64,000 nt of DNA from Candidatus Omnitrophota bacterium (GTDB lineage: Bacteria > Omnitrophota > Gorgyraeia > VGKH01): the NCBI GenBank assembly GCA_016867135.1, contig VGKH01000002.1, positions 6,312 to 70,311 on the forward strand, read 5' to 3'. Made by a program: the position numbers and the translations under genes. The notes beneath the pieces are model-generated. The model did no database searches. It was given only the letters and a program-made list of their open reading frames with translations, and was not told the DNA's origin. The first letter of the stretch is position 1. The number at the start of each line of letters is the position of its first letter. Below, in pieces: positions 38,687 through 40,606 of this stretch.

Positions 38687-40606
38687 ATGGTTAAGTCAAG
38701 ATCATTGATAAGAAAGACATTTTGCTTGGTTTTTGTCCTTCTTTTTATAGAAACTTTAGAAAATTTATGGTGTTTTAGGATTTTTTTCCCCCGAGCCAAA
38801 GACTTTTCTTTATTAATTAGTTTACCTTTGCTAAAGATTCTTACTCCCCCGGCAGTATATTTAATTTCCATCTTGCTCTTAAGTTATTTTGCGGTCTTTT
38901 TTTATTTCAATTATGTCTTGGATTTTTTCCTGGAGAACTCAAATTGGCCCAGCCTAAAAAATAGACATTTTAGGCGCTGGTTTATCTTGGGCAATTATTA
39001 CTTTTTCTTAAATTTTATTTATGGCTTAAATTCATTTCTTTTTTTTGGTTCAGCATTTAAGCATTTTCTTCTTTATTTGTTGCCATTTCCCCGCGTCCCC
39101 CATACTTGGTTCTTGTTTTTATTGGGATTTTATTTTTTAGCATTATTTCTATTTACTGCTAAACTAGCAGCTCGCAAGAAAGGTTTTTTTGTTTTGACTC
39201 TTCCTTTACTGTGTGTCCTTGTTATCTTATCGTTAGATTCTTTAGCAGGGCAGACAAGATTAAGGCCTTTTACGCAAAAGAATAATGTTATTTTATTGGG
39301 TGTAGATTCTATCCAGTATAATCGCCTTACGAAAAACTGGGGTTTTCATAAAGACTTGGCGCCAAATATTGGGGATTTTTTAGAACGTAGTGTATGTTTT
39401 ACTAACAGCTGGTCTCCTCTTGCCAGGACATACCCGTCATATAATGCTATTTTGACCGGCCGCTATCCTATTAATAACGGTATCAGAGACAATTTATTAG
39501 AAGATTACCATATAAATCCTACCAACCTGTATCTTGGTAATTTACTGAAAGAACATAACTATTTTTCATCCCATTATACCGATGAGGTGCGCTTCAGTAT
39601 TATTCGCAATATTCACGGTTTTGATAAGCTGTTTCATCCTAAAATGGGAGTGACCGATTATATCTTGGCCACGTTTTTTGATTACGCCATCACAAACTTA
39701 ATGCTTTATACAAATTTCGGTAATTATTTACTTTATCCGTTAGCATATAATAGGTCGCATGTTGCCTACAATCCCCGCGTTTTTGTTAACAGGGTAATCA
39801 AAGAAATTAATAATCTTCCCCGGGATAAGCCTCAGTTTATAGTCATTCATCTGTGTTCTAACCATTATCCTTATTTTCCTGCCTTCCCATACAATCGTAA
39901 CCGGAATTTAATTGATTTTAGTGAAAAAGGTATTGCTATGACCGATGGGCAAGTCGGTCAGCTTTTGGAGTTTTTTAAAAAAAGTCAATTATTAGAGAAT
40001 TCTTTGTTTGTTTTACACTCTGATCATGGCGATGGTTGGGATGCGGTTAACAAAGCTATTTCGCACGGCTCTAACTTTAATTACCTGTGGTGCAACAAAA
40101 CGGTATTAGGTTTCTGGGGAAAAGGCTATATTCCTCGTAAGATAGACAACTTGGTCCGCAGCTTTGACATCTATCCGACGATATTGGAAATGATGGGCTT
40201 GGAAGTTCCAAAGGATATTGATGGCATAAGCCTAGTAAATTTGATGGATGGCAGAAAAGAGGCGCCCCGGAACTTTTTTGCCGAAACCGGTTATTCCCTA
40301 GAAAATAAGTATATAAATGGAAAGATACAAAATTTAGATAGTGACATAAAGAATTACAAGGTGGATTATAAAACCGGTTTAGCTTTTATAAAAGATGAAG
40401 ATTATGATGAGTGGGTTCTGAAAAGGAAATGGTATTTAATGATTAACAAAAACCTGGCGTTGATTTATAATCCTTTTTTGGGTGAGGTTAGATTTGGTTT
40501 TATTGACCCCTTAAACCCGCAATATTTTTTGACGACCACTGCCTCCGAGCATAAATTGAAGAAGGGCATGTTAATTCAGATAAAAAAATTCAATAAGATT
40601 AAATGA
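38687..40606 (+). CDS. membrane-anchored sulfatase/alkaline-phosphatase-superfamily transferase (LtaS/EptA/PptA-like)
   Basis: 5-6 N-terminal TM helices followed by a catalytic domain with the metal/nucleophile region VILLGVDSIQYNRL, CFTNSWSPLARTYPSYNAILTGRYP. Confidence 0.7.
   Translation: MVKSRSLIRKTFCLVFVLLFIETLENLWCFRIFFPRAKDFSLLISLPLLKILTPPAVYLISILLLSYFAVFFYFNYVLDFFLENSNWPSLKNRHFRRWFILGNYYFFLNFIYGLNSFLFFGSAFKHFLLYLLPFPRVPHTWFLFLLGFYFLALFLFTAKLAARKKGFFVLTLPLLCVLVILSLDSLAGQTRLRPFTQKNNVILLGVDSIQYNRLTKNWGFHKDLAPNIGDFLERSVCFTNSWSPLARTYPSYNAILTGRYPINNGIRDNLLEDYHINPTNLYLGNLLKEHNYFSSHYTDEVRFSIIRNIHGFDKLFHPKMGVTDYILATFFDYAITNLMLYTNFGNYLLYPLAYNRSHVAYNPRVFVNRVIKEINNLPRDKPQFIVIHLCSNHYPYFPAFPYNRNRNLIDFSEKGIAMTDGQVGQLLEFFKKSQLLENSLFVLHSDHGDGWDAVNKAISHGSNFNYLWCNKTVLGFWGKGYIPRKIDNLVRSFDIYPTILEMMGLEVPKDIDGISLVNLMDGRKEAPRNFFAETGYSLENKYINGKIQNLDSDIKNYKVDYKTGLAFIKDEDYDEWVLKRKWYLMINKNLALIYNPFLGEVRFGFIDPLNPQYFLTTTASEHKLKKGMLIQIKKFNKIK

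Follow-up and report, generated by a model that had tools for sequence, protein, structure and literature searches.

A threonine-type sulfatase-fold membrane enzyme encoded among pilin genes of Omnitrophota is a candidate pilin accessory phosphotransferase

The 64,000-nucleotide stretch of Candidatus Omnitrophota bacterium contig VGKH01000002.1 analysed here (assembly GCA_016867135.1, positions 6,312 to 70,311; hereafter the window) carries a type IV pilus locus, and between the prepilin genes of this locus sits a gene for a membrane-anchored enzyme with a sulfatase fold and a predicted threonine nucleophile, which is a candidate pilin accessory phosphotransferase (Table 1). The protein is identical to a 639-residue sequence deposited as a hypothetical protein of a Candidatus Omnitrophica metagenome-assembled genome (MAG; P0001). 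It had been described in an earlier reading made from the letters alone (the sequence-only reading) as a transferase of PptA, EptA or LtaS type inserted between pilin genes and possibly modifying pilin; the position between pilins is borne out by one N_methyl match upstream of the gene and two downstream.

Table 1. Features of the window at and around the enzyme gene (positions are those of the window).
Feature	Position	Strand	Basis or remark
AAA_22 (ExeA/GspA-like) ATPase	34027-34845	+	
DUF2079 polytopic membrane protein	34932-36725	-	PF09852, E 3e-36
GT2 glycosyltransferase resembling polyprenyl-phosphate sugar synthases	36933-37745	+	PF00535
Terminator-like hairpin closing the upstream GT2 transcription unit	37932-37961	+	12-bp stem, then T run
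Promoter close to the sigma-70-type consensus, serving the major pilin gene (TTGACA, 17 nt, TG-TAAAAT)	37971-37999	+	
Probable major type IV pilin, 137 aa	38179-38591	+	N_methyl, E 5e-10; leader MKKNKRG|FTLVEIM; GspG/PilA-like N-terminus
16-bp perfect hairpin between pilin and enzyme genes, candidate attenuating terminator	38622-38657	+	Folding
Membrane-anchored Thr-nucleophile sulfatase-fold enzyme, candidate pilin accessory phosphotransferase	38687-40606	+	639 aa
N-terminal membrane domain, residues 1-188, about five transmembrane helices	38687-39250	+	Hydropathy, AlphaFold2 helices, invariant columns
Codon of E22, conserved membrane-domain residue	38750-38752	+	
Codon of N26, conserved membrane-domain residue	38762-38764	+	
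Codon of Y112, conserved membrane-domain residue	39020-39022	+	
Periplasmic catalytic domain, residues ~197-535	39275-40291	+	PF00884
Codon of D207	39305-39307	+	
Codon of T248, predicted catalytic nucleophile	39428-39430	+	Invariant A-R-T-Y-P motif
Codons of D446-H447, predicted metal ligands	40022-40027	+	S-D-H-G motif
Codon of H460	40064-40066	+	
Second prepilin-type gene	40696-41166	+	N_methyl; GspG/PilA-like N-terminus
Third prepilin-type gene	41294-41863	+	N_methyl; true start probably downstream of listed TTG
Multi-transmembrane and TPR protein, 657 aa, PMT/TMTC-like GT-C candidate protein O-glycosyltransferase	41893-43866	+	About ten hydrophobic segments, then TPR repeats
Minor pilin	43954-44424	+	
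Minor pilin	44421-45065	+	
PilX_N/DUF4900 protein	45080-46828	+	
PilM, PilN, PilO, short gene, secretin (PilQ-like)	47109-51145	+	

Hydropathy and an AlphaFold2 model (mean predicted local distance difference test score 83, predicted template modelling score 0.88) place about five transmembrane helices in the N-terminal part of the enzyme (residues 2-33, 46-84, 93-118, 140-160 and 163-188), followed in the model by an alpha/beta domain and then by a C-terminal beta-rich subdomain. Stretches rich in Lys and Arg at the N-terminus and in the loops at about residues 85-92 and 161-163, read from the sequence, indicate by the positive-inside rule an N-in topology with the catalytic domain facing the periplasm. 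Residues 200-504 match the Pfam family PF00884 (Sulfatase) at E 2.6e-26 with a score of 93 bits (cutoff 25), with weaker Phosphodiest and SGSH_C matches overlapping the same region, so that the architecture proposed by the sequence-only reading, a multi-helix anchor joined to a periplasmic sulfatase-superfamily domain, was confirmed by Pfam, hydropathy and AlphaFold2 alike. The profile classification suggested with that reading returned PF00884 but no EptA, LtaS or OpgB subfamily model: none of these models matched in the NCBIfam scan, which gave only partial, sub-threshold matches to arylsulfatase, choline-sulfatase and PehA models. The 16 family members that were aligned (31-51% identity) all match PF00884, and none matches EptA_B_N (PF08019), LtaS_N or another membrane-domain family at E<=0.01. 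Within the membrane domain of these proteins E22 and Y112 never vary and N26 hardly does; E22 and N26 are embedded in the membrane in the first transmembrane helix and Y112 lies in the third, and the three residues may form a site binding a lipid headgroup or a pilin helix.

By sequence, the nearest solved structures are true S1 sulfatases (E ~1e-12), and the active-site stretch of the enzyme (...W-S-P-L-A-R-T-Y-P-S-Y-N-A-I-L-T-G-R-Y-P...) keeps the L-T-G-R-Y-P segment as in sulfatases. Unlike in the S1 sulfatases and phosphonate monoester hydrolases, T248 takes the place of the Cys or Ser of the C/S-x-P-x-R motif and the Arg of that motif is replaced by Y252 (T-Y-P-S-Y). Pairwise sequence alignments with 6bia and 7ozc, the only basis of these further comparisons, place D207-S208 on the DD pair, with Ser for the second Asp, and D446-H447 on the DN pair, with His for the Asn ligand; there is no GKWH motif, and S-H460-G-S stands in the GGK lysine region. 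The five-helix anchor is a further addition relative to those enzymes. In the catalytic domain D207, S208, R247, T248, Y249, H388, H393, D446, H447, H460 and E533 are invariant in 16/16 members, and the nucleophile stands in a family motif A-R-T-Y-P-[SA]-[YW]. A Thr nucleophile is not convertible to formylglycine, and the chemistry should therefore be phosphoryl transfer or phosphoester hydrolysis rather than sulfate-ester hydrolysis. A true sulfatase was ruled out, the formylglycine motif and the sulfate-binding residues being replaced.

The enzyme has an alpha/beta core fold with a metal site and a nucleophile at conserved positions, and its active-site residues are predicted by homology to cluster in three dimensions. 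Profile alignment by hhalign with an LtaS_N-type protein of locus L008 (97% probability, catalytic domains aligned) places T248 on the Thr of the 'G-R/K-T' motif, D207 on the Glu ligand and D446-H447 on the DH pair. The corresponding alignment with E. coli EptA is limited to the 'H..H...SDHGE...HG' block, the N-terminal and nucleophile regions remaining unaligned. This block is the Asp452/His453/His465 region of the Neisseria meningitidis enzyme NmEptA, for which E240, T280, D452 and H453, plus H383 and H465, have been reported as ligands (PMC10525099). In the present enzyme the first metal ligand is Asp, not Glu as in EptA; the Thr, the Asp-His pair and the following His are present.

Comparison of folds gave the highest figures for S1 sulfatases and phosphonate monoester hydrolases (28-29.7), followed by PbgA/YejM (27.5-27.7), LtaP/LtaS (26.1-27.3), EcEptC (23.5), MCR-1 and NmEptA (~21), and BcsG and GacH (~18), a ranking with which Foldseek agrees. 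An OpgB orthologue was ruled out, with an hhalign probability of 12% to E. coli OpgB. A LapC/PbgA-like inactive sensor was judged unlikely: PbgA/YejM/LapC is a lipopolysaccharide (LPS) or lipid sensor and not an enzyme, whereas the catalytic residues of the family described here are invariant (hhalign probability to E. coli LapC, 57%). The enzyme resembles LtaS and LtaP, which transfer phosphoglycerol from phosphatidylglycerol, in the alignment of Thr on Thr with the protein of locus L008, and differs from them in lacking LtaS_N and any NCBIfam LtaS match, in its host, a Gram-negative-type Omnitrophota genome that encodes a secretin, and in its pilus rather than cell-wall context. Resemblance to Neisseria PptA, a class XI phosphoethanolamine transferase of the EptA family, lies in the polytopic inner-membrane anchor, the periplasmic PF00884-superfamily domain, the Thr nucleophile and the Asp-His metal site with a following His; PptA is functionally tied to the type IV pilin PilE, and the present enzyme is tied to pilin by gene position.

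The kinship claimed by the sequence-only reading thus stands at the level of the superfamily and fails at the level of the family, where EptA_B_N and LtaS_N are missing and the fold is nearer to sulfatases, PbgA and LtaS. By these sequence and fold comparisons the enzyme is placed outside the EptA/PptA, LtaS and OpgB families, its separation from the first of these being measured against E. coli EptA, the EptA_B_N profile and EptA-type folds. It belongs to a separate family that combines an S1-sulfatase-like scaffold, a Thr nucleophile and a five-helix anchor of its own. An exhaustive HMMER search recovered 418 representatives of this family (50% identity clusters) at E<1e-30, mostly of 650-720 aa. 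Among the matches listed, A-R-T-[YF]-P-[SA]-[WY] is found in at least 89 of 147 representatives, and weak outliers carry C-x-P-x-R. Relatives are named in their sources only 'sulfatase-like hydrolase/transferase' or 'arylsulfatase A-like', and no sulfatase-family pilin accessory protein other than PptA was found in the literature, in a search covering few subscription journals.

Linkage to pili is conserved among the relatives. Prepilin or pilus-machinery genes lie nearby in 18 of the 21 loci of relatives at E<=1e-55, the linkage extending to about 17 related genomes from three phyla; of the three exceptions, P0045 lies clearly elsewhere, and the contigs of P0046 and P0054 are uninformative, being short or ending at the gene. 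Applied to 107 kb of control loci, the detector used for prepilin motifs picked up no open reading frame (ORF) with such a motif. The sequence-only reading had named beforehand, as the outcome that would speak against it, closest homologues that are LtaS or OpgB orthologues in non-pilus surroundings; the closest homologues instead form an uncharacterised family that is mostly pilus-linked.

In the window and in loci L001, L002, L003, L009, L014, L015, L016 and L017 the gene next upstream of the enzyme is a pilin gene. Those of Omnitrophota type (P0003/L002, P0004/L001, P0007/L003, P0009/L014, P0010/L009, P0011/L016 and L015) all have this arrangement, with an upstream pilin 48-64% identical to that of the window and, in most of them, genes for PilB, PilC, PilM-O, a secretin and an ExeA-like ATPase around the enzyme. 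The Planctomycetota loci (L005/L020, L018, L019, L021, L023 and L024) have the enzyme beside prepilins and/or a secretin or T2SSF gene, and in L026 it is divergent from a trio of pilin, GT2 and GT-C protein with tetratricopeptide repeats (TPR) resembling that of the window. Among Gammaproteobacteria, a Pseudohongiellaceae MAG (L022) has the enzyme divergent from an operon ending in a prepilin gene. A Bermanella sp. MAG (L027, 3542-7383) has two tandem paralogues of 637 and 634 aa, carrying ARTFP/ARTYP and SDHGE motifs, between nadC and a prepilin gene, the chromosomal interval that houses pilin accessory genes in Pseudomonas. A relative of 29% identity, P0057 (L033), has a PilY1-like protein and a prepilin as neighbours. 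In two loci of Planctomycetota or unclassified MAGs (L019, 7392-8792; L023, 5427-8858) a further sulfatase-like ORF, of weak relatedness, begins directly after the enzyme gene or overlaps it, and the enzyme ORFs of several Planctomycetota loci reach 780-850 aa, lengths that may be overestimated, being called from the first possible start.

The arrangement of pilin and enzyme genes also involves a conserved hairpin. The 95-nt spacer between them in the window folds with a minimum free energy of -35.6 kcal/mol (z -6.7, 0/200 shuffles as stable) and contains a perfect 16-bp stem followed by the imperfect U tract UUCUUCUU; on account of this imperfect tract the hairpin was missed by the promoter and terminator scanner, and it was found by reading the sequence and confirmed by folding. 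Canonical hairpin and U-tract terminators occupy the equivalent spacer in L001, L002, L003, L009 and L015 (z -3.2 to -5.9, 0/200 shuffles as stable), giving an intrinsic terminator between pilin and enzyme in six loci of Omnitrophota type (z -3.2 to -6.7), five of them with canonical U tracts; none is present in the pilin-enzyme spacer of the Planctomycetota locus L005. The only Shine-Dalgarno-like sequence before the enzyme ATG is AAAGGAG, 19 nt upstream, which suggests modest translation of the enzyme.

Upstream of this spacer, the listed ORF of the major pilin begins at TTG 38118, and the ATG of the gene as tabulated, behind an AAGGAGG site and giving a typical seven-residue prepilin leader, is the likely true start. 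Its promoter, identified by consensus match only, has 11/12 hexamer matches and an extended -10 TG, and implies a 5' untranslated region of ~170 nt before the pilin ATG. Promoter, AAGGAGG site and 3' hairpin are consistent with a separately controlled major pilin gene and with the strong expression supposed by the sequence-only reading, but fall short of proof.

In Pseudomonas aeruginosa, pilin-accessory cassettes likewise consist of a pilin gene, a terminator and an accessory gene, the terminator having been proposed to attenuate expression of the accessory gene, and the accessory products TfpO and TfpW modify pilin (PMC11841053). In these cassettes (pilA followed by tfpO, tfpW or tfpX/Y/Z), as in the window, the accessory gene comes directly after the pilin gene, from which an intrinsic terminator separates it. 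Both TfpO and TfpW are polytopic enzymes of the membrane, and their modification of pilin takes place on the periplasmic side; the present enzyme is polytopic, with a catalytic domain facing the periplasm. It is unrelated to TfpO (an O-oligosaccharyltransferase) and TfpW (a GT-C arabinosyltransferase), having an alkaline-phosphatase/sulfatase fold, and its chemistry would be phospho-form transfer instead of glycosylation.

The enzyme has the fold, the topology and the Thr-type active site set out above, has lost the sulfatase motif, and lies in conserved synteny with pilin and type IV pilus genes behind a conserved intergenic terminator. It may be a pilin accessory enzyme that moves a lipid-derived phospho-headgroup onto pilin or its glycan, a reading that we favour while holding it as a serious possibility only; that it transfers rather than hydrolyses, that the donor is a lipid and pilin the acceptor, and which group is moved, we infer by analogy. 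In this scheme the enzyme would be an inner-membrane protein using Thr248 and a divalent metal (ligands D207, T248, D446 and H447, with H393 and H460 nearby) for covalent transfer of a phosphoryl group. Thr248 would first attack the phosphodiester of a membrane phospholipid, releasing diacylglycerol and leaving a phospho-headgroup-Thr intermediate. The headgroup, phosphoethanolamine, phosphoglycerol or similar, would then be handed to a hydroxyl group in the globular domain that the major pilin exposes to the periplasm while still anchored in the membrane, or to one of a glycan attached to the pilin, ahead of fibre assembly. Expression of the enzyme would probably be sub-stoichiometric, by read-through of the hairpin after the highly expressed pilin gene. 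The two steps are proposed by analogy with the characterised polytopic Thr-type members LtaS, EptA/MCR-1, EptC, PptA and OpgB.

Such products have precedents: PptA adds phosphoethanolamine or phosphocholine to PilE (PMC10525099), meningococcal PilE carries phosphoglycerol, and EptC of Campylobacter jejuni modifies FlgG and N-glycans. The cognate pilins end in tails rich in Ser, Thr and Gly (...TPGSPQQ, ...SEASGGS, ...TVASGS, ...SATGTGS, ...VGVSS), which are candidate acceptor sites and are offered as a lead only. The idea of pilin modification raised by the sequence-only reading is plausible, and is considerably strengthened by the conserved synteny and the cassette organisation. Pilin phospho-form enzymes as a kind are already known from PptA; what would be new is a candidate pilin accessory or phospho-form enzyme from a different, uncharacterised branch of the superfamily.

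Several observations weigh against this reading. A conserved acceptor residue was looked for in the pilins and only the Ser/Thr/Gly-rich tails were seen; the catalytic scaffold is closest to hydrolases, namely the S1 sulfatases and phosphonate monoester hydrolases; the nearby glycosylation genes (GT2, PMT-like GT-C and DUF2079) allow a glycan acceptor; and all carriers are uncultured MAGs. P0045, and P0046 at a contig end, both of similar divergence to pilus-linked relatives, are not visibly linked to pili, and the distant Thr-type relatives P0019, P0021 and P0061 are not pilus-linked, indicating that the pilus association marks a large clade and not the whole family, and that the ancestral substrate of the family was probably not pilin. 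The pilus-linked clade is marked by the motif S-D-H-G-x-G-W, others having S-D-H-G-E. Recruitment to pili of a phosphotransferase with a general envelope role would be expected to leave this pattern, and PptA offers a parallel within the EptA family. In L008 (6097-11162) P0021 is encoded side by side with a PhoD phosphodiesterase and a sulfatase-family protein of LtaS_N type, and a phosphonate-type ABC transporter is encoded upstream of the three, which hints at a role in phosphate or lipid-headgroup metabolism for those members of the wider family that are not tied to pili.

Transfer of a phospho-headgroup to a glycan is the alternative that survives best, if still an unlikely one; the acceptor would be an O-glycan on pilin or envelope proteins, the LPS core or a periplasmic or exported polysaccharide. 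OpgB and OpgE act on periplasmic glucans, and further precedents are C. jejuni EptC on N-glycans and BcsG on cellulose. The pilins of the window are embedded among the GT2 gene resembling polyprenyl-phosphate sugar synthases, DUF2079 and the PMT-like GT-C/TPR gene, the trio of pilin, GT2 and GT-C gene recurs beside the enzyme in L026, sugar-nucleotide genes flank L001 and L002, and a polysaccharide cluster lies at 20-32 kb of the window. Against this, L003, L009, L014, L015 and L017 have only type IV pilus genes and no glycosylation genes within ~6-8 kb, and the invariant neighbour of the enzyme is a pilin gene rather than a glycosyltransferase gene.

The scaffold likeness already noted, in which the nearest structures are hydrolases, would also suit a membrane-anchored periplasmic phosphodiesterase, phosphomonoesterase or phosphonate-ester hydrolase working alongside the pilus, which might remove a pilin phospho-form, process pilus-captured lipid or nucleotide/DNA, or scavenge phosphate. 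Nucleotide pyrophosphatases/phosphodiesterases likewise use Thr. A hydrolase nonetheless seems doubtful to a greater degree than a glycan acceptor: soluble hydrolases of the superfamily normally need no conserved five-helix domain with such invariant residues as E22 and Y112 and the nearly invariant N26, the best profile match among membrane-anchored references is the LtaS-type transferase, and the position in a pilin-accessory cassette fits modifying enzymes.

A non-catalytic role in pilus assembly or quality control, whether as a TfpY-like chaperone or as a scaffold that senses lipid in the manner of PbgA/LapC, with the sulfatase-like fold merely retained, is improbable given that the nucleophile and all metal-site residues are invariant at 31-51% identity and conserved across the wider family. 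The least probable alternative is an ordinary envelope enzyme, either an LtaS-, OpgB- or EptA-like housekeeping protein or a true sulfatase, with a position by pilin genes inherited without functional meaning: the source annotations as sulfatase-like or arylsulfatase A-like proteins, the several family members outside pilus loci and the many sulfatase-family genes that Planctomycetota encode agree with it, but C/S-x-P-x-R has become T-Y-P-S-Y, the enzyme matches no LtaS, OpgB or EptA subfamily and is far from OpgB by hhalign, and the linkage recurs in three phyla with different gene orders (after pilin, divergent from a pilin operon, or between nadC and pilin), indicating that it is not simple vertical inheritance.

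Returning to the enzyme as a pilin accessory phosphotransferase, pilin phospho-form decoration may have arisen a second time, independently of Neisseria PptA, when a sulfatase-like scaffold exchanged formylglycine for Thr, acquired a five-helix membrane domain of its own and took on a dedicated role as pilin accessory enzyme, a history that we put forward a little more tentatively than the function itself. For the ultra-small and probably host-dependent Omnitrophota the principal surface organelle predicted is the type IV pilus. In the small number of pathogens investigated, chemical decoration of pilin is known to alter adhesion and aggregation as well as recognition by the immune system and of phages. 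If the proposal is true, phospho-form decoration of pili would be widespread among environmental bacteria, would have at least two origins in a single enzyme superfamily, and would add a third enzymatic class of pilin-accessory cassette beside TfpO and TfpW, spread through Omnitrophota and Planctomycetota and some marine Gammaproteobacteria. It would also provide a genomic marker (A-R-T-[YF]-P plus S-D-H-G-x-G-W adjoining pilA) and a first function for part of the large Thr-type 'sulfatase-like hydrolase/transferase' family, which comprises at least 400 clusters at 50% identity and is now mis-annotated as arylsulfatase.

The remainder of the pilus locus departs from that of most homologous Omnitrophota-type loci, which have PilB and PilC genes directly upstream of the pilin. 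No homologue of PilB (T2SSE) or PilC (T2SSF) was found in the window, where GT2, DUF2079 and AAA_22 genes take that position, indicating that the locus is rearranged. Homologues of the AAA_22 ATPase (34-38% identity) directly follow the secretin gene in L014, L015 and L017, and AAA_22 proteins hold the same position in L003 and L009; the ATPase is a conserved component of the pilus system, relocated upstream in the window. The GT2 glycosyltransferase has its best NCBIfam likeness to AglJ, dolichyl-phosphate hexose transferase and ArnC-type models, all below cutoff. Homologues of the GT-C/TPR protein match PMT (PF02366) or PMT_2 (PF13231), and one is called protein O-mannosyl-transferase by JGI; together with GT2 and DUF2079 this protein looks like a module for O-glycosylation of protein, perhaps of pilin.

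Rfam and tRNA scans of the window gave no match that bears on the locus. A large forward-strand cluster for glycan or polysaccharide biosynthesis (~20183-32363), situated upstream of the pilus genes, encodes a Wzx-type flippase, methyltransferases, several GT4 enzymes, a GT9 enzyme and an asparagine-synthase-like amidotransferase, as well as a polysaccharide deacetylase and a WecA/MraY-family initiating transferase. Between this cluster and the pilus locus, also on the forward strand, is a gene (32320-33792) for a 490-aa protein with a weak N-terminal PHP-domain match and internal hydrophobic segments.

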